In this document: one piece after another, positions 4,104 through 14,998 of the stretch
Numbering within the stretch: the first letter of the stretch is position 1
How the letters are laid out: every line of letters begins with the position of its first letter
Virus record (IMG/VR): IMGVR_UViG_2634166457_000017
Coordinates: 1 to 15,535 of that record
Source of the DNA: a virus
Taxonomy: Duplodnaviria; Heunggongvirae; Uroviricota; Caudoviricetes
Length of the DNA stretch: 15,535 nt
Strand: one strand, 5' to 3'
The notes under the pieces: generated by a model
Told to the model about the DNA's origin: nothing
The model's database searches: none
What the model saw: only the letters and a program-made list of their open reading frames with translations
Made by a program: the position numbers and the translations under genes

Positions 4104-4391
4104 ATGAAACAGAAAATTTCTGGCTTTACTGCCAGCGGCCCCGCTCGTCCTGAATTTATGAACGGCGATATTTACCGCGATAAATATGGCGGTACGGTAA
4201 CGATTAAAGGCGTGGCAGAACGGCGCATCACCTACCGCCGTGAAGGTTATGAATATGACTGCGTGATGCCTGTTTATCAATTCCGGCGTGATTTTAAGCT
4301 GGTGGGCCATCGTAAAGCCGTAAATAAGAAACGTGCAGCAAGCTATATCCGCAAAATCCGTGAAATGCTGGTCGCAGGGGGTAAGAAATGA
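4104..4391 (+). CDS. Hypothetical small basic protein
   Basis: 95-aa ORF; stop overlaps primase start (ATGA), suggesting coupled translation. Confidence 0.5.
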   Translation: MKQKISGFTASGPARPEFMNGDIYRDKYGGTVTIKGVAERRITYRREGYEYDCVMPVYQFRRDFKLVGHRKAVNKKRAASYIRKIREMLVAGGKK

Positions 4392-6136
4392 AACTGGCAC
4401 CGAACGTAAAAAAACAACCACGCGGAATAAAACACAAAGACACAGAGGTAATTATTTTCGCGGGTAGTGATGCGTGGGCACATGCAAAACAGTGGCAGGA
4501 GCAGGACGGCCCCGCATCCGGCGATGATGTGCCGCCTGTGTGGCTTGGGCCAAATCAGCTTGCCGAACTGGATGCGCTGAAAATTGTTCCGGATGGGAAA
4601 AAACGCGTAAGGCTGTACCAGGCCGGAGAACTGGATTTAGTGGAGACCAAAAAGATTGGTCAGAAGCTGGCGGCGGCAGATATTCAGGATGCGAATTTTT
4701 ACCCCGAAGGGATGCACGGACAGAAATGTGAGAACTGGCGGCGCTATCTGAATGCTGAGCGTGAAAATATTGCCGCAGGGATTACCATGCCGGAACAGAA
4801 AAAATCACAACTTTCACAGATGGCAGACAGTGAACGGGCACAGCTTCTTGCTTCCCGCTTTGATGGTGTCTGCGTCCATGCAGAAAGTGAAATCGTTCAC
4901 GTATGGCGTGACGGGGTATGGTGTCCGGTCAGCACAATGGAGCTGAGCCGCGAAATGGTGGCGGTTTATTCAGAACACGGGGCCACGTTCAGCAAGCGTG
5001 CAATTAATAACGCCGTTGAAGCATTAAAAGTTATTGCCCAGCCAATGGGGGAGCCGTCCGGCGATTTGCTGCCGTTCGCCAATGGTGCGCTTGACCTGAG
5101 AACAGGAGAATTTTCCCCGCACCAGCCGGATAACTGGCTCACCACCCACAACGGCATTGAGTACACGCCGCCAGTACCAGGGGAGAATATCCGCGACAAC
5201 GCGCCAAACTTTTATAAATGGCTTGATCACGCTGCCGGAAAAGACCCACACAAGATGATGCGCATATGTGCCGCGCTCTACATGATTATGGCGAACCGGT
5301 ACGACTGGCAGATGTTCATTGAGGCCACCGGAGACGGCGGGAGCGGTAAGAGTACATTCACGCACATTGCCACACTACTTGCCGGAAAACCGAACACGGT
5401 GAGCGCCGAGATGACATCGCTTGATGATGCTGGTGGGCGTGCGCAGGTTGTCGGGAGCCGCCTTATCGTTCTGGCAGACCAGCCGAAATACACGGGCGAG
5501 GGCACGGGCATCAAGAAAATCACGGGCGGCGACCCCGTGGAGATTAACCCGAAATATGAAAAGCGATTCACGGCGGTAATCAGGGCGGTTGTGCTGGCAA
5601 CCAATAATAACCCGATGATATTCACCGAACGGGCCGGAGGCGTGTCACGTCGTCGGGTGATATTCCGGTTCGATAACATCGTAAGCGAGGCAGAAAAAGA
5701 CAGGGAGCTACCGGAAAAGATAGCGGCAGAAATCCCTGTCATTATCCGCCGCTTGCTGGCGAACTTTGCCGACCCTGAAAAGGCACGGGCTTTACTCATT
5801 GAACAGCGAGACGGTGATGAAGCACTGGCGATAAAGCAGCAGACGGATCCGGTTATTGAGTTTTGCCAGTTCCTTAACTTTCTGGAAGAAGCACGCGGCC
5901 TGATGATGGGCGGCGGCGGTGACTCTTCCAGGTACACGACCAGAAACAGCCTTTACCGCGTCTATCTGGCGTTTATGGCGTATGCCGGCAGGAACAAGCC
6001 GCTGAACGTGGCTGAGTTCAGCAAAGCTATGAAGCCAGCGGCGAAAGTTTACGGACATGAATATATAACGCGCAGGATTAAAGGGATTACGCAAACCAAC
6101 GTGACAACAACAGACGACTGCGACGCGTTTTTATAA
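4388..6136 (+). CDS. Phage/plasmid primase-helicase, P4 family (D5_N-like plus SF3 NTPase)
   Basis: 582-aa ORF; Walker A GDGGSGKST; GGGGG SD upstream; immediately followed by iteron array. No obvious TOPRIM EGYATA motif seen, so it may be helicase/initiator only. Confidence 0.85.
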   Translation: MKLAPNVKKQPRGIKHKDTEVIIFAGSDAWAHAKQWQEQDGPASGDDVPPVWLGPNQLAELDALKIVPDGKKRVRLYQAGELDLVETKKIGQKLAAADIQDANFYPEGMHGQKCENWRRYLNAERENIAAGITMPEQKKSQLSQMADSERAQLLASRFDGVCVHAESEIVHVWRDGVWCPVSTMELSREMVAVYSEHGATFSKRAINNAVEALKVIAQPMGEPSGDLLPFANGALDLRTGEFSPHQPDNWLTTHNGIEYTPPVPGENIRDNAPNFYKWLDHAAGKDPHKMMRICAALYMIMANRYDWQMFIEATGDGGSGKSTFTHIATLLAGKPNTVSAEMTSLDDAGGRAQVVGSRLIVLADQPKYTGEGTGIKKITGGDPVEINPKYEKRFTAVIRAVVLATNNNPMIFTERAGGVSRRRVIFRFDNIVSEAEKDRELPEKIAAEIPVIIRRLLANFADPEKARALLIEQRDGDEALAIKQQTDPVIEFCQFLNFLEEARGLMMGGGGDSSRYTTRNSLYRVYLAFMAYAGRNKPLNVAEFSKAMKPAAKVYGHEYITRRIKGITQTNVTTTDDCDAFL

Positions 6137-7643: not shown

Positions 7644-8789
7644 ATGAAGAAATTAATCGAACTCCGCCAGCAAAAAACCGCCCTGAAAAACCAGATGCGC
7701 TCCCTGCTGGAAAAAGCAGACAGTGAAAACCGCAGCCTGAACGATGACGAGGGCAAACAGTTTGATGAACTGCGTGCAAAAGCTGATTCCCTCGACACAG
7801 AAATCTCCCGTCTTGAAGCTGTTGCGGATGAAGAACGTAACCAGCCAGGTGTTTCCGTCGAAGAGAAAATCACCAAAGACGAATTGCGCTCTTATATTCT
7901 GACCGGGGAAACCCGCAACCTGTCCGGCAGTGTCCCGGCTGATGGTGGTTATACGGTTATCCCGGAACTGAACAGAGAAATTATGCGTCAGCTTTCTGAT
8001 GAATCGGTGATGCGTAAAATCTGTACCGTTAAAACCATTCACAGCAATGAATTTAAGCAACTGGTTTCTACCGGGGGGGCGGTCGTTGAACACGGCGAAG
8101 AAGGTGCGGCACGTAACCAGACGGCAACACCAAAACTGAATGAAGTCAGTATCCGCCTGTATCCGATTTACGCTTACCCGAAAACCACTCAGGAAATTAT
8201 CGATTTTTCCGAAGTCGATATTATGAGCTGGTTATCTTCTGAAATTGGCGACACTTTCGTTGATACCGAAGAAACGGATCTGGTTTCCGGTGACGGCGAG
8301 AAAAAAGCTAAAGGCTTCCTGGCTTTCCCGCGCACTGCGGACAATGACAAAACCCGTCCTTTCGGTACGCTCCAGACGAAAAAAGTTACTGGCAGTCTCA
8401 GCGCCGACATGCTGATTGACCTGAAATTTACGCTACGCAATAAGTACCGCAAAAAAGCTGTATGGGTGATGAACTCAAATACAGCCGCCTCCGCACAAAA
8501 ACTGAAAAATGCCACTGGTGATTACATCTGGCGCGATCGTTTACAGGCTGGTGATCCTGATTCTCTGCTGGGGCTTCCGGTTGAATATCTGGAATTTATG
8601 CCGGACGGTGTGATTGCAGTAGGTGACTTTAAGCGCGGTTATTTCATCGTTGACCATGAAACCGGTACGCGAACCCGTCCGGACTTCAGCGAACCCGGAT
8701 TCATTAACATCTATACCCAGAAATATCTGGGCGGTGGTGTGGTGGATTCGAACGCCATCAAGATTCTGGAAATTCAGGCTGGCAAGTAA
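7644..8789 (+). CDS. Major capsid protein, HK97 family (with N-terminal delta/scaffold-like coiled coil)
   Basis: 381-aa ORF; N-terminal charged coiled-coil segment typical of the HK97 gp5 delta domain; gene context capsid-protease-portal. Confidence 0.85.
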   Translation: MKKLIELRQQKTALKNQMRSLLEKADSENRSLNDDEGKQFDELRAKADSLDTEISRLEAVADEERNQPGVSVEEKITKDELRSYILTGETRNLSGSVPADGGYTVIPELNREIMRQLSDESVMRKICTVKTIHSNEFKQLVSTGGAVVEHGEEGAARNQTATPKLNEVSIRLYPIYAYPKTTQEIIDFSEVDIMSWLSSEIGDTFVDTEETDLVSGDGEKKAKGFLAFPRTADNDKTRPFGTLQTKKVTGSLSADMLIDLKFTLRNKYRKKAVWVMNSNTAASAQKLKNATGDYIWRDRLQAGDPDSLLGLPVEYLEFMPDGVIAVGDFKRGYFIVDHETGTRTRPDFSEPGFINIYTQKYLGGGVVDSNAIKILEIQAGK

Positions 8790-8795
8790 TGAGCA

Positions 8796-8820
8796 AAGGG
8801 GGCTTCGGCCTCCTTTTTCA
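8796..8820 (+). terminator. Intrinsic terminator/attenuator after major capsid gene
   Basis: AAGGGGGC (8796-8803), TTCG loop, GCCTCCTT (8808-8815) forming an 8-bp stem with one G-U pair, then T-run. Confidence 0.5.
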
Positions 8821-8838
8821 GCTTTATGGAGTACACCG

Positions 8839-9399
8839 ATGAAAAATACCGATTTTGAAATCCGTACATCTGAACTGACCGCCAGCGATAAAAAACTGGT
8901 GGGTTATGCCGTTCGCTGGAACAGTCTTTCAGAAATTATCTGGGATGAGTTCCGCGAACAATTCACGCCGGGGGCTTTTGCTGACTATCTGGCTGCGGGT
9001 AATGATGTGCGCTGCCTGTATGAGCATGACTGTACCCGACTGCTGGGGCGTACCAAATCCGGCACACTGGTACTGACTGAGGATAACACCGGGTTACGTT
9101 TTGAACTGACACCGCCGGATACCCAGCTTGGGAAAGATGTGCTTACGCTGGTGGAGCGAGGCGACATTACAGGAATGAGCTTTGGCTTTCGCGCATTATG
9201 TGAGGAGTGGAATATCGCGCAAAAACCGTATCTGCGTACTGTTACCGCCGCAGAACTCAGGGAAATCACGATAACGTCGATGCCTGCTTACCCCGAATCT
9301 GGTGTGGAGATTGCCCACCGTTCGTTGTTTGCACAGCACCCTGAATTACGCCCGACAGGAAATAATCGTCATCGCTGGGCTGAACTGGCGGGGTTGTGA
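8839..9399 (+). CDS. Prohead maturation protease, HK97 family (S78-like)
   Basis: 186-aa product from ATG 8839 (GGAG SD); N-terminal LVGYAVRWNSLSE...FTPGAF typical of HK97 prohead protease. The ORF-track extension to 8623 overlaps the capsid gene and is not used. Confidence 0.8.
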   Translation: MKNTDFEIRTSELTASDKKLVGYAVRWNSLSEIIWDEFREQFTPGAFADYLAAGNDVRCLYEHDCTRLLGRTKSGTLVLTEDNTGLRFELTPPDTQLGKDVLTLVERGDITGMSFGFRALCEEWNIAQKPYLRTVTAAELREITITSMPAYPESGVEIAHRSLFAQHPELRPTGNNRHRWAELAGL

Positions 9400-9400
9400 T

Positions 9401-10615
9401 ATGTGGTGGCCTTTTAGTCGTAAAAAAAGCGATCTGCGTAACCTGTCCATTGATGATTTTCTGGCGCTGTCCGGCGTACCGAATACCGGATCCGGAGAAT
9501 ATGTTTCTGCCGGGACGGCTGAATCATTGCCTGCAGTGATGAACGCGGTTTCTGTCATCGCTGAGGCGGTGGCCACGATGCCGTGTTATCTGTATCTGGT
9601 ACGTAATGACAAGGGCAGGGAGGCGCGGGAATGGCTGGACAGTCATCCGGTAGATATTCTGCTGAATGAGCAGCCTAATTCGTGCCAGACACCTTACCAG
9701 TTTAAACGCACAATGATGCGTCACTGCCTGCTGAACGGTAACGCCTATGCGGTTATTGAGTGGGGGCGGGACGGGCAGCCCAAATCACTTCATCCTTATG
9801 CACCGGGTTGTGTTGTACCGGAACGCACAGGCGCACACAAATACCGCTATACCATCACCGAACCCTATACAGGAACGGTGCGCACGTATTTACAGGAAGA
9901 AGTTTTGCATCTCCGCTATGCCTCGGATGATGGCTTTCTGGGGCGCTCCCCTGTCACGATTTGCCGTGAGGCGCTGGGGCTTGGCCTTGCTCAACAGCGC
10001 CACGGAGCCAGCATTATGAAAGATGGCATGATGGCGGCAGGGATTATCACGTCAGGCGAATGGCTGGACGGCGTGAAAGGTAAACAGGCATTAGATGCTC
10101 TGGAACGCTATAAGGGGGCGAAAAATGCCGGAAAAACGCCAATCCTTGAAGGGGGCATGGATTACAAGCAACTGGGGATGAGTAACCAGGATGCGGAATG
10201 GTTGGCCTCCCGTCGCTTCTCCATTGAAGACATTGCCCGTATGTTCAACGTGTCGCCGATTTTTCTTCAGGAATACAGCAACAGCACCTACAGCAATTTC
10301 AGTGAGGCAAGCCGCGCGTTTCTGACTATGACAATGCGTCCGTGGCTGGCGAACTTCGAACAGCAAATCAAGGCCGCTTTGCTGGTGGCTTCTCCCGTAC
10401 CTGGTACCCGTTATCTGGTTGAGTTTGATTCAGCCGATTTACTGCGCGCCACCCCTACCGAACGTTACGCCACGTATGAGAAAGGGATTAAGAACGGGAT
10501 CATGAATCCGAACGAAGCCCGTGAGCGTGAGGGAATGCCGCCGCGTGAAGGTGGCGACGAGTTCAGCCAGGCATGGAAGCAGACTGTGGAAATTAAAGGT
10601 GAAAAAGATGAGTGA
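9401..10615 (+). CDS. Portal protein, HK97 family
   Basis: 404-aa product from ATG 9401, 1 nt after protease stop; size and context fit an HK97-type portal. Confidence 0.8.
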   Translation: MWWPFSRKKSDLRNLSIDDFLALSGVPNTGSGEYVSAGTAESLPAVMNAVSVIAEAVATMPCYLYLVRNDKGREAREWLDSHPVDILLNEQPNSCQTPYQFKRTMMRHCLLNGNAYAVIEWGRDGQPKSLHPYAPGCVVPERTGAHKYRYTITEPYTGTVRTYLQEEVLHLRYASDDGFLGRSPVTICREALGLGLAQQRHGASIMKDGMMAAGIITSGEWLDGVKGKQALDALERYKGAKNAGKTPILEGGMDYKQLGMSNQDAEWLASRRFSIEDIARMFNVSPIFLQEYSNSTYSNFSEASRAFLTMTMRPWLANFEQQIKAALLVASPVPGTRYLVEFDSADLLRATPTERYATYEKGIKNGIMNPNEAREREGMPPREGGDEFSQAWKQTVEIKGEKDE

Positions 10616-10907
10616 AGACAAAATTACACCTGATGAAGTCAGGGCACATCTTCGCCTTGATGACTTTTCCGGAGAAGGCGAACTTCTGAAAATGTATACC
10701 GATGCGGCGCTGGAAGCCTGCCAGAAGCATATCGGGAAACGTTTTGAAGACGGGCTGGAATTTACCCCGGCAATACGTGTTGGTTGCCTGATGTACATCG
10801 CTTTCCTGTATGAGAACAGGGAAGCGGTTTCACCTGTGGAGCAGTCTGAACTGCCTATGGCTATTTCTGCGCTCTGGTCGGTTTATCGTGATGTGGGGGT
10901 GTACTGA
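10608..10907 (+). CDS. Head-tail connector protein (gp6-like)
   Basis: 99-aa product; N-terminal ITPDEVRAHLRLDDFSGEGELLKMYTDAA matches the conserved start of gp6-like head-tail connector proteins; AAAGGTGA SD; overlaps portal stop. Confidence 0.7.
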   Translation: MSEDKITPDEVRAHLRLDDFSGEGELLKMYTDAALEACQKHIGKRFEDGLEFTPAIRVGCLMYIAFLYENREAVSPVEQSELPMAISALWSVYRDVGVY

Positions 10908-11346
10908 TGCCGTGGCAACCATTAAGGCGATGCACTGAGCCGGGCTGTAATAAGCGCGTGAAGTCCGGCAAGTGTGAAGAGCACAGGCGGGCTGCATGGC
11001 GTGCAGAGGATGCCAGACGGGGACACCGCCGCGCGCGCGGGTATTCCCGACAGTGGGACAAATACCGCGCCCTGTACCTGAGCAAAAACCCGTTATGCGT
11101 GCGTTGTCTGGCTAAGGGGATTTATACGCCAGCTCTTGTGGTGGATCACATCATTCCCATCAATGGCGCGGTGATGTTCTCTTCTGGCCTGAGTGGAATC
11201 ACCAGGCATTGTGCCAGACGTGCCACAACCGTAAGACGACACGGGAAGATCCAGCCACGAAAGCGAACCGTAAGGCGGGCATGTATCGCGAGCAGGAAGA
11301 ACGGGCGGCACATCGTAACGACTGGATGTATGGCGATGATGACTGA
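10907..11346 (+). CDS. HNH endonuclease, disrupted by an apparent -1 frameshift near 11165-11172 (possible pseudogene or sequencing error)
   Basis: Frame of ORF 10907..11515 encodes CVRCLAKGIYTPALVVDHIIPING, then loses the motif; the frame shifted by one base encodes GDVLFWPEWNHQALCQTCHNRKTTRED and stops at 11344-11346. The D-H and N/H halves of the HNH motif are therefore in different frames. Confidence 0.7.
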
Positions 11347-11634
11347 ACAGGAGCAAAACAGGCTGATACGTGGACTGATAAGGCAGCGTGACTTATGGAA
11401 GACACAGGAGACAGGGCACAAAGCCAACAGGACAGGACGCACAGAACGCACCACAGCGAAGCGATTAACCGACCGTGACCGCGAGGTCATGGAATGTTTT
11501 CGCAATCGCTGGTGAAGCCGTCAGAGGGGGTGGGGGAGGTTTTCAGGACGAAACCGTCCCTGCCGGACACCGACCGCCTCCTCAAATTTTTGTGCACGGG
11601 AATTTTTTTGAAAATAATTGGGCGAAAAAAGAAC
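11347..11634. other. Candidate cos / terminase recognition region between HNH and terS
   Basis: Location between HNH and small terminase as in HK97-type phages; purine-rich direct repeats ACAGGAGACAGGGCACA (11404-11420) and ACAGGACAGGACGCACA (11427-11443); G-rich tract GAGGGGGTGGGGGAGG (11524-11539); small hairpin GGACG-AAAC-CGTCC (11546-11559). Confidence 0.3.
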
Positions 11635-11991
11635 ATGGCAAGACCACCAAAAGCCCCCGCTTACCTGGATGAAATCGCGGTCAGGCAGTGGAAGGAAAAA
11701 TCGCGCCAGCTTTCCGGGCGGGAAGACCTTACCCCCGCCGACTGGAGCAATCTGGAACTGTATTGCGTTAACTACTCCATATACCGCAAAGCCGTCGAAG
11801 ACCTTGCGACGCGCGGCTTCAGCATTGTTAACAGTCAGGGCAGCGAGAGCAGAAACCCCGCCCTGAGCGCAAAGGCTGACGCGGAAAGAATAATGATCAA
11901 AATGGCTTCTTTGCTGGGTTTTGACCCGGTAAGCCGCCGCAGAAATCCACCGGAAACAGAGGAAGAGGACGAGCTTGACCGCCTGGCATGA
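11635..11991 (+). CDS. terS: Terminase small subunit, P27 family
   Basis: Translation MARPPKAPAYLDE...LYCVNYSIYRKA...SRNPALSAKAD...LLGFDPVSRRR matches the P27-family TerS pattern. An alternative upstream start at ATG 11494 (with GAGG SD) cannot be excluded. Confidence 0.7.
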   Translation: MARPPKAPAYLDEIAVRQWKEKSRQLSGREDLTPADWSNLELYCVNYSIYRKAVEDLATRGFSIVNSQGSESRNPALSAKADAERIMIKMASLLGFDPVSRRRNPPETEEEDELDRLA

Positions 11992-13636
11992 GTACGCAGA
12001 AGGCGTAAAAAACGGCAAAATTACGGCCTGTAAACGACTGAAACAGGCCGTTAAACGGTATTTTTATGACCTTGAAAACCCCCTTTACACGTTCGATCCT
12101 GAGGTCGTGGAGCGGTTTATTGCCTTTTCCAGGGTGTGCCCGCACGTAAAAGGCGCAATGCGCGGTAGCCCCATTGAGCTGGAGCCGTGGCAGCAGTTCG
12201 CCTTTGCGTGCATCCTGGGCTTTAAGGTTAAGGCCACCGGACGGCGCAAATACACCAGCGCATTCATTGAAGTACCGCGAAAAAATGCCAAATCCACGGT
12301 CGCCGCTATCCTGGCTAACTGGTTTCTGGTTATGGAAAACGGGCAGCAGGATATTTACACCGCCGCCGTGAGTCGTGATCAGGCGCGGATCGTGTTTGAT
12401 GATGCGCGTCAGATGTGCCTTTTATCCCGACCGTTACGAAAGCGGGTAAATATTCAGGCACACAAGGTGATACACACGAAAACCAACAGCCTGTTAAAGC
12501 CACTGGCAGCAAAAGCGGCAACCATTGAAGGTACAAACCCGAGTCTTGCCATTGTGGATGAATATCACCTGCACCCTGACAACGGGGTTTATTCCGCGCT
12601 TGAACTGGGAATGGGGGCGCGTCCGGAGGGGTTATTATTTGCCATCACCACATCGGGGAGCAACGTTGTTTCAGCCTGTAAACAACACTACGACTATTGC
12701 TGCCAGATACTGGATGGTGAAGAGGTGAACGAATCCATGTTCGTGCTGATTTACGAGCTGGATGATGAAAGCGAGGTTGACGATCCGGCGATGTGGATAA
12801 AGGCGAATCCCAATATCGATGTTTCCGTCGATCGTGAAAAACTGGCCTCAACCATCCAGAAAGCGCGGGGTATTCCGTCGCAGTGGGTGGAAATGCTCAC
12901 CAAGCGATTCAATATCTGGTGTCAGGGGGCTACGCCGTGGATGGGTAACGGTGCATGGGCGGAGTGCGCCGGAATGTTCGCGGAGGCGGATTTATACGGG
13001 CAGGAGTGCTACGCGGGGCTGGACTTATCATCAACCAGCGATATTTCCAGCGTGTGCTATGCCTTTCCGGTCGGTAAAAAGATTATGCTGGTTTCCCGTC
13101 ACTATCTGCCGGAATTTCAGCTACAGAACCCTGCCAATAAAAACCGCGCCATCTATCGCCAGTGGGCAAAGGCGGGCTGGATACGCACAACACCGGGTGA
13201 CTGCATTGATTATGACCGTATCCGTGATGACATCATGGCGGATGCAGAGAATTTCAATATCAGGCTGGTGGGTTTCGATACATGGAACGCCACGCACCTG
13301 AGGACGCAGCTACAGGGCGCGGGATTTGAGGTGGAGCCGTTCCCGCAAACATACCTTCGTTTCAGTCCGGCGGCGAAATCGTTCGAAGTTTTTGTTAACC
13401 GGAAGGTGATTGTGCATCGTGGTGATCCGGTGCTGGCCTGGTCAATGAGTAATGTTGTGATGCAGAGTGACGCGAACGCCAATATCAAGCCGAACAAGAA
13501 AAAATCATCCAACAAGATAGACCCGAGCGTTGCGGCGCTGATGGCGTTTGGCACATTCCAGGCAGAGCATGAGGAATTTGCATTCGATATGAGCGACAGC
13601 CACAAAGAGCGGCTTGCGGCGTTTGATGGGGTATAA
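11975..13636 (+). CDS. terL: Terminase large subunit
   Basis: 553-aa ORF; Walker A-like VPRKNAKST and Walker B-like LAIVDEYH; TTG start with AGAGGA SD, overlapping the terS end. Confidence 0.9.
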   Translation: MTAWHEYAEGVKNGKITACKRLKQAVKRYFYDLENPLYTFDPEVVERFIAFSRVCPHVKGAMRGSPIELEPWQQFAFACILGFKVKATGRRKYTSAFIEVPRKNAKSTVAAILANWFLVMENGQQDIYTAAVSRDQARIVFDDARQMCLLSRPLRKRVNIQAHKVIHTKTNSLLKPLAAKAATIEGTNPSLAIVDEYHLHPDNGVYSALELGMGARPEGLLFAITTSGSNVVSACKQHYDYCCQILDGEEVNESMFVLIYELDDESEVDDPAMWIKANPNIDVSVDREKLASTIQKARGIPSQWVEMLTKRFNIWCQGATPWMGNGAWAECAGMFAEADLYGQECYAGLDLSSTSDISSVCYAFPVGKKIMLVSRHYLPEFQLQNPANKNRAIYRQWAKAGWIRTTPGDCIDYDRIRDDIMADAENFNIRLVGFDTWNATHLRTQLQGAGFEVEPFPQTYLRFSPAAKSFEVFVNRKVIVHRGDPVLAWSMSNVVMQSDANANIKPNKKKSSNKIDPSVAALMAFGTFQAEHEEFAFDMSDSHKERLAAFDGV

Positions 13637-14204: not shown

Positions 14205-14998
14205 CCTACGAAATTTTCGCAGGTTAATTATCTATCTGCTTAATCGCTAACCCACTGATTTTTATGATGACTCAAATTTGAAGCATCTTTGTTTACGTTG
14301 ATATTGTGTCAAAGCCCTTTTTCGGGCTTTGGCCTAACCCGCTGATATTTTCGGAAACAGCCATCGACTGAGGCCGGAGTAACCGACTATCTTTGAGATA
14401 GTCAGATGTACGAAATTTGTGCGGGACTAAAAGTCCCGCGCAAATTCACTACATCACCGTAATGGTTATGCAGTCCACCAGCAACCATAACGATTTCCGT
14501 TACTGTTGATGTGCTTTTTTGCTGGTAAGGCGTAATCCGTTGATTGTTCCACAAACCTCAATTTGAGGAAGCCGGAAAACTCACCCGCCAGATTCTGAAT
14601 GGTGAAAATCACCGGGGATCTGAATAGGCATTTCCTCTATGGAGGTCGCACCGTTTTCGGGAGAAGGTGCGATCATGTTCGTCATACCGGTTCCGTTGAA
14701 ATGAAATAGCCCTGTATGGGCATCATCACCATGCAGGGGATCAAAATCTCTGTAGCTTCATGTTGCCGGGACCGCCAGCCTCGCCAAATTTTTGCGTTTG
14801 TGAAAAACGAAAATTATTACGTGCTTTGCCCTCTCCTGTTTCTGATGTTGTATACTCGCGGCCTTCTAATTGTGCTGGTGCTTTTTTGAGATTGTGGCGC
14901 TGTGTATCGATCCGTATATCATTCGGTGTATCACTTTTGATAAATTGCTACGTGTGAATTTGTTTTTAACTGACAAAAATCAGTGGGTTATGTGAATT

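Follow-up and report, generated by a model that had tools for sequence, protein, structure and literature searches.

The question raised by this locus is where a satellite island that carries its own terminase genes has its DNA cut for packaging, and whether that site differs from the cos of a helper phage. A preliminary description had proposed a cos site between the HNH endonuclease gene and the small terminase gene, terS, made up of two purine-rich repeats, a G-rich tract, a short hairpin and an AT-rich stretch. The stretch just 5' of terS is very probably the DNA-packaging cut site of the island, and it is of the HK97/P27 type. The earlier proposal placed cos correctly but named the wrong sub-elements in the repeats and the hairpin, while the G tract and, in part, the AT-rich stretch hold up as conserved elements.

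The island and its packaging genes

The window, by which we mean the whole stretch of 15,535 nt that was analysed, is a capsid-forming PICI (cf-PICI) of E. coli inserted between gcd and hpt. It has the features by which cf-PICIs are recognized, namely a length of about 15 kb, an integrase, a primase/replication module, a capsid-protease-portal-adaptor cluster and an HNH-terS-terL cluster. No tail or lysis genes were found in the window among the Pfam and PHROG assignments. According to the same assignments, the genes run 5' to 3' as capsid, protease, portal, adaptor, HNH, a small ORF, a gap, terS and terL, in agreement with the published description of cf-PICIs. The main genes are as follows.

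1-1227: integrase (Pfam/PHROG)
4388-6136: D5-type primase (Pfam/PHROG)
7644-10615: HK97-fold capsid, protease and portal (Pfam/PHROG), with the head-tail adaptor next
10907..11346, plus strand: HNH endonuclease gene (gp74-like) with a 1-bp deletion at about 11168; the Pfam HNH model matches the first half only
11330..11515, plus strand: small gene of 61 aa overlapping the 3' end of the HNH gene (phrog_3173, E=2.7e-29, full length)
11635..11991, plus strand: terS, P27-family small terminase of 118 aa (Pfam Terminase_4, E=4e-23)
11975..13636, plus strand: terL, HK97 gp2-like large terminase (Pfam TerL_ATPase and TerL_nuclease)

The same island is present at the gcd/hpt junction of E. coli ATCC 43886 (RefSeq annotation), and a relative of the HNH-terS region occurs in 534 of 5426 complete E. 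coli genomes (about 10%). A non-coding right arm of about 800 bp (14205-14998) extends to the start codon of hpt. At least 80% of this arm is covered in just 8 of the 5426 E. coli genomes. Since it is missing from most of them, the island appears to have taken the place of the DNA directly 5' of hpt.

The packaging proteins are homologous to those of phages with cohesive ends. TerL aligns with HK97 gp2 (28% identity, E=9e-50) and TerS with L35 of phiP27 (32% identity, E=5e-18), and the intact version of the HNH protein aligns with HK97 gp74 (36% identity, E=6e-17). In this copy, the HNH gene is frameshifted. One G is missing at about 11168, where GGCGGCGG in TUM9757 reads GGCGCGG in the window according to the alignment. 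The deletion falls between the catalytic motifs, and the shifted frame continues to 11515, producing an ORF (10907-11515) fused to the small ORF. None of 55 related loci carries the deletion allele, the ATCC 43886 copy of the island included. The frameshift is either a sequencing error or it leaves the window copy unable to cut its own cos. If it is real, the cos of the window may not be cleavable without help, and this copy of the island may be inactive.

The start of terS at 11635, which the preliminary description had assumed, is upheld, and homologues from other lineages are also 118 aa long. Many gene callers report a 165-aa ORF from 11494 (11494-11991) as terS, and this frame is open in this lineage only. 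Other lineages carry an in-frame TAA two codons 5' of the terS ATG, as read off the alignment. For annotators, the consequence is that the 165-aa call swallows the cos site in this lineage and makes the cos region look coding.

The predicted cos site and its relatives

The interval described earlier as lying between HNH and terS exists, but it is not a single intergenic stretch. Positions 11330-11515 are coding, with the 61-aa gene interposed between HNH and the terS-terL pair, and only 11516-11634 are non-coding. Conservation was measured in a set of IMG/VR loci picked by TerS similarity alone and reduced to 16 lineages at below 95% identity. Two near-invariant non-coding blocks were detected, with variable DNA around them. 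We divide the region as follows, with the assignments to cos functions being predictions from alignment and analogy.

11524..11553, plus strand: putative upstream cos element, a G tract followed by TTTTCAGGAC; near-invariant across lineages
11554..11566, plus strand: variable spacer holding the 3' arm of the hairpin; 1 of 13 columns invariant, mean identity 0.56
11571..11580, plus strand: predicted cosN with a 10-nt 3' cohesive end, CGACCGCCTC, in ungapped register with defined phage ends
11581..11591, plus strand: conserved left-end sequence CTCAAATTTTT, predicted to be the first packaged bases
11592..11617, plus strand: putative small-terminase site (cosB-like), GTGCACGGGAATTTTTTTGAAAATAA, at +12 to +37; 19 of 27 columns invariant

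The G-rich tract of the preliminary description (GAGGGGGTGGGGGAGG, 11524-11539) is real and almost invariant among relatives. The block that contains it, measured over 11526-11553, has a mean identity of 0.91 and 20 invariant columns out of 28. The second block (11567-11617), which comprises the predicted cut and the putative binding site, has a mean identity of 0.88 (34 of 52 columns invariant), and this value drops to 0.58 in the stretch before terS (11618-11634; 2 of 25). The AT-rich stretch is likewise confirmed, and an invariant run of seven T residues lies in it, within TTTTTTTGAAAATAA (11603-11617). The hairpin GGACG-AAAC-CGTCC (11546-11559) can be found in the window but is not conserved, being formable in one of the 16 lineages, and the fold of the whole interval was no better than that of shuffled sequences (z = -0.99). 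Both blocks can also be recognized in Pmp8, a Pasteurella element with 61% identity in TerS.

The position of the cut can be predicted from three phages with defined ends. HK97 has 10-nt 3' overhangs, and its small terminase requires an A/T tract in its binding site at +15 to +29 (PMC11331095); the HK97 genome record begins and ends at cos. The 10-nt 3' extension of phi644-2 is 5'-CGCCCGCTTC-3' (PMC2920897), exactly the last bases of its record. The phiP27 record carries an annotated 10-nt cos-site, CGCCCGCCCC. Anchored on their cuts, all three align to the island without gaps. The sequences on either side of the known or predicted cuts, including those of an EDL933-type island, are listed below.

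HK97: 10-mer before the cut, CGCCGCCAAA; after the cut, GTTTGAATTTAACGC
phi644-2: 10-mer before the cut, CGCCCGCTTC; after the cut, GTCAAATTTTCACGC
phiP27: 10-mer before the cut, CGCCCGCCCC; after the cut, GTCAAATTTTTACAC
Window (predicted): 10-mer before the cut, CGACCGCCTC; after the cut, CTCAAATTTTTGTGC
EDL933-type island: 10-mer before the cut, CGCCCGCCCC, as in phiP27; after the cut, CTCAAATTTTTACGC

All five sites have a G run ending about 40-43 nt before the cut and an A/T tract at about +21 to +30. The 3' end of the G tract lies 41 nt before the predicted cut in the window, and a G run about 40-43 nt before the cut is present in HK97, phi644-2, phiP27, ST64B, AbIPP1 and Pasteurella Pmp8. 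In this register, the top strand would be nicked at 11580/11581 and the bottom strand at 11570/11571, with a possible error of a few bases, as the positions derive from alignment to three phages. The packaged DNA is accordingly predicted to have a right end in ...CGACCGCCTC-3' as a 10-nt extension and a left end beginning with CTCAAATTTTTG. The sequence TCAAATTTT is common to the window, phi644-2 and phiP27 in the same register, and 12 of 20 columns are invariant in the segment 11572-11591. At the positions common to HK97 and phi644-2, the window site matches 14 of 22, and sister lineages match 15-17 of 22. Considering the gene order, the homology of TerL and HNH, the ungapped alignment and the assembly break in a relative described below, the earlier placement of cos between HNH and terS, as in HK97-type phages, is supported. 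Positions 11524-11617 are probably the island's own cos, of the HK97 / phiP27 / phiE125 class, which is HNH-dependent and has 10-nt 3' cohesive ends.

The closest relatives of this cos are P27-family sites, and HK97 supplies a biochemical analogy only. In phiP27, phiE125/phi1026b/phi644-2 and ST64B/SfV, cos lies at the same HNH-terS position and is accompanied by the same small-terminase family as in the island. These sites and the island share a G run about 41 nt 5' of the cut, followed in one register by GGAC/GCAC, a C-rich 10-mer, the cut and (G/C)TCAAATTTTT. They differ at +12 to +37, where the island has GTGCACGGGAATTTTTTTGAAAATAA and the P27-family phages have ACACCCGCGAAA(A/T)T.... Unlike these phages, the island carries the 61-aa gene between HNH and cos, and its cos would serve a satellite of 15 kb with small capsids of its own making. 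The SfIV paper does not give mapped ends, stating that the cos is identical to those of SfI, SfII and SfV.

The likeness to HK97 cos comprises a G9 run, ACCGCC at -12 to -7, ACGC at +12 to +15 and a T7 run at about +24, in the same layout and spacing. The HK97 TerL and HNH proteins are homologous to those of the island, and gp74 HNH stimulates HK97 cos cleavage. However, this resemblance is at the level of motif and register, not of profile-level homology. No sequence similarity was detected between HK97 gp1 and the TerS of the window, and gp1 falls outside Pfam Terminase_4. When the circularized HK97 genome was searched with an nhmmer profile of the island cos, its junction was not matched, the best hits (E-values of 3-4) being located elsewhere. 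Because gp1 is dissimilar and the profile search links nothing, the transfer of the TerS footprint from HK97 is an analogy and not a homology. By this analogy, the small-terminase site is likely to lie in 11592-11617. The block spans the position equivalent to the HK97 site at +15 to +29 (CTAACCCGATTTTTT), its T7 run is invariant at +23 to +29, and it is island-specific in sequence compared with the phage sites.

Evidence on physical ends comes from relatives. The virion DNA of K. pneumoniae DSM 30104, sequenced with Nextera XT, yielded the 16.5-kb vB_KppS-Ant, which matches part of that genome at more than 99% identity (PMC8006926). It is very likely that vB_KppS-Ant is the cf-PICI KpCIDSM30104. 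The linear vB_KppS-Ant contig stops at GGTTTTCAGGAC (...GGGGTGGGGGAGGTTTTCAGGAC) and resumes 22 bp before terS. A twin contig in IMG/VR, identical on both flanks, has 69 more bp in between, corresponding to 11550-11618 of the window. The predicted cut falls inside this gap, 31 nt past its start and 38 nt before its end, and the break places the ends within about 69 bp and no finer. Because the ends of linear DNA are under-represented in libraries made with a transposase, a loss of tens of bases at each end of vB_KppS-Ant is plausible. In the chimeric record of Klebsiella phage P12620-1, the cf-PICI segment also breaks on both sides of the interval. Contigs ending at cos were absent from the TerS-based IMG/VR loci, all of which run through the site. 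The same holds for the 38 loci in metagenome contigs with the exact G-tract pattern and for the IMG/VR contigs with the left-end pattern, which carry no end information.

Two of these records have further features. vB_KppS-Ant (LR881103.1) was published as a filamentous ssDNA prophage, yet capsid, portal and terminase genes are present in it, and the 2.3-kb gene that follows terL bears the annotation of a tape measure protein. The P12620-1 record (PQ569648.1, 106.5 kb) carries a cf-PICI in its last ~16 kb (~90.6-106.5 kb), joined to unrelated sequence exactly at the start codon of terS, in what looks like an assembly chimera.

Headful (pac) packaging, which would give permuted, terminally redundant DNA without unique ends, is argued against by the terminase type and by the match to cos sites. 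It is also at odds with the report of cohesive-end concatemers for KpCIDSM30104: according to a cf-PICI preprint, the packaged DNA of this element re-anneals via its cohesive ends.

These elements suggest a scheme for packaging, modelled on the phage systems. The P27-family TerS of the island would bind the +12 to +37 block (11592-11617), a GC-rich patch followed by the T7 run. Once bound, it would position the HK97 gp2-like TerL together with the gp74-like HNH nuclease. TerL and HNH would then introduce staggered nicks, at 11580/11581 on the top strand and 11570/11571 on the bottom strand, leaving the 3' extension CGACCGCCTC. Packaging would proceed rightwards from terS through the circularized or concatemeric island and end at the next cos. 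The G-tract element (11524-11553), the last to enter, may aid termination; our guess is that it works like lambda cosQ, either in termination or by helping to place the nuclease.

What would make the site specific for the machinery of the island is chiefly the +12 to +37 block; the cut site is nearly identical to those of phages. This bears on the earlier suggestion that the cos of the island differs from that of the helper, which would explain selective packaging into island-made capsids. The predicted cut region is almost phage-identical, whereas the +12 to +37 block is island-specific, and a second phage-type cos complicates the picture. A distinct cos contributing to selective packaging would thus fit, though through another sub-element than the one proposed. 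Both cf-PICI preprints that were searched assume cos-based self-packaging, and neither gives the location of cos. A prediction at the nucleotide level makes it testable which block gives the island terminase its specificity and whether the G tract is needed in termination. It also points to designs of plasmids that could be packaged into island capsids.

A second cos-like site in the right arm

The HNH-terS site (hereafter cos1) is a member of a well-known kind, and the parts worth following are its nucleotide-level prediction and a lineage-specific second site.

14734..14819, plus strand: cos2, a phage-type cos-like site in the non-coding right arm, with a predicted cut at 14782/14783 and the 10-mer CGCCAGCCTC

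A position weight matrix (PWM) built from four phage sites only was scanned over both strands (31 kb). Its best two matches in the window were at 14782 (29.5 bits) and at 11580 (16.9 bits), both above the 99.99th percentile of 9.9, and cos1 thus scores below cos2. Scored on the 22 positions that HK97 and phi644-2 have in common, cos2 (17 matches) is again the best site in the window. Of 26 non-identical islands with this TerS type, 23 carry extra cos-like sites, as against none of 24 islands with other TerS types. In this TerS lineage, they lie 1.5-5 kb downstream of the terS start, on the same strand. The sequences of cos2 vary between islands. In TUM9757, cos2 has 95-96% identity to the cos sites of ST64B, SfII and related phages, and a different variant has 84.5% identity to that of phiP27. 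The variant of the window was not found beside a terS in the phage collection, and in complete E. coli genomes it occurs in the same island only (10 genomes).

The better fit of cos2 to the phage consensus and its retention in 23 of the 26 islands raise the alternative that cos2 is the site used in this lineage, with cos1 being a relic or one of two alternatives. We consider this unlikely. Within the lineage the cos1 blocks do not vary, and lineages lacking cos2 have them too. In the only relative with sequenced virion DNA, the ends fall at cos1. In addition, cos2 in the window has a short G run only. The variants of cos2 resemble the cos of full-size phages with other P27-family terminases, suggesting that a different terminase reads them.

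That cos1 is the island's own cos is compatible with a further, more tentative reading, in which the lineage carries two working cos sites of different specificity: its own between HNH and terS, and a right-arm copy of an ST64B/SfV- or phiP27-type phage cos. We regard this as possible, although the odds are somewhat against it. If true, the terminase of a helper could also package the island, or be diverted by it. This would amount to a second transfer route or to interference, beyond the picture of cf-PICIs as exclusively self-packaging. No mention of extra cos sites was found in the cf-PICI preprints that were searched.

Classical PICIs with two cos sites are known (PMC6739421), and the lineage-restricted, phage-type cos2 bears on the question raised there of why some satellites carry two different cos. 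One such case is the classical E. coli PICI EcCICFT073, a satellite with two cos, with a helper-like cut region and a different terminase-binding part (PMC6739421). Its cos1 and cos2 are lambda-type and are read by the helper small terminase together with the island protein Rpp. Unlike EcCICFT073, the island of the window encodes a complete terminase and an HNH protein, and its sites are of the HK97/P27 type. The S. aureus HNH phages phi12 and phiSLT and the island SaPIbov5 are also alike in having HNH-dependent cos packaging and cos-bearing satellites. SaPIbov5 copies the helper cos and uses the helper terminase, unlike the island of the window.

In some related islands, two extra cos-like sites stand in tandem about 293 bp apart, downstream of terL (at ~13017 and ~13310 of one locus, and at ~8228 and ~8521 of another).

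Expression signals, the small gene and its repeats

The conserved blocks lie directly 5' of terS, and the T run is followed by GAAAATAA, giving an AT-rich sequence that resembles a promoter region. They could accordingly be read as signals for terS-terL expression (promoter, leader RNA or terminator) and not for packaging. Several results make this very unlikely. No plus-strand promoter-like or terminator-like site was found in 11516-11634, an Rfam search returned no match, and the fold, as stated above, does not exceed that of shuffles. The same blocks flank the experimentally defined genome ends of three phages, and the 17-25 nt directly before the start codon are the variable part.

We therefore keep to the reading of the blocks as parts of cos, and turn to the elements for which the preliminary description had proposed terminase binding.

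11404..11443, plus strand: the two purine-rich 17-mers, which code for the variable basic linker of the small protein

The gene that contains them is conserved as a coding sequence. It is annotated in RefSeq relatives, and 75 of 82 related sequences keep the ORF intact. Its product has a conserved C-terminus (RDRE-x-x-ECFRNR) and a variable basic linker, and a 21-nt indel in the gene is in frame. Over the 16 lineages, the ORF (11330-11515) has a mean pairwise identity of 0.63, with 42 of 189 columns invariant.

Both 17-mers are present as described, repeat 1 (ACAGGAGACAGGGCACA) at 11404-11420 and repeat 2 (ACAGGACAGGACGCACA) at 11427-11443, and they match at 12 of 17 positions without gaps. 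The spacing of 23 bp given earlier is the start-to-start distance, whereas the intervening gap is 6 nt. When 11347-11634 was shuffled 1000 times with dinucleotides preserved, 547 of the shuffles (55%) held a 17-mer pair at similar spacing with at least 12 of 17 matches, so that the observed match is not above chance. Across the 16 lineages, none of the 40 columns of 11404-11443 is invariant, and their mean pairwise identity is 0.43. Repeat 1 lies mostly inside a 21-nt in-frame insertion limited to this and one neighbouring lineage. Because the repeats encode the linker, fall in and around an insertion and contain no invariant column, we regard them as a coding by-product and not as binding sites.

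That the 17-mers, which do lie near cos, are repeated terminase-binding elements like the R sites of lambda cosB, with cos starting at about 11400, is thus most improbable and largely refuted: they are at chance level, coding and unconserved, and they sit upstream of the predicted cut, on its packaged-last side, whereas the HK97 small terminase binds the opposite side.

The phrog_3173 protein is encoded between HNH and cos in enterobacterial cf-PICIs and is missing from the Pasteurella element Pmp8. In the Acinetobacter phage AbIPP1, an unrelated small ORF occupies the position of this gene, and an unannotated ORF can be read at that position in HK97.
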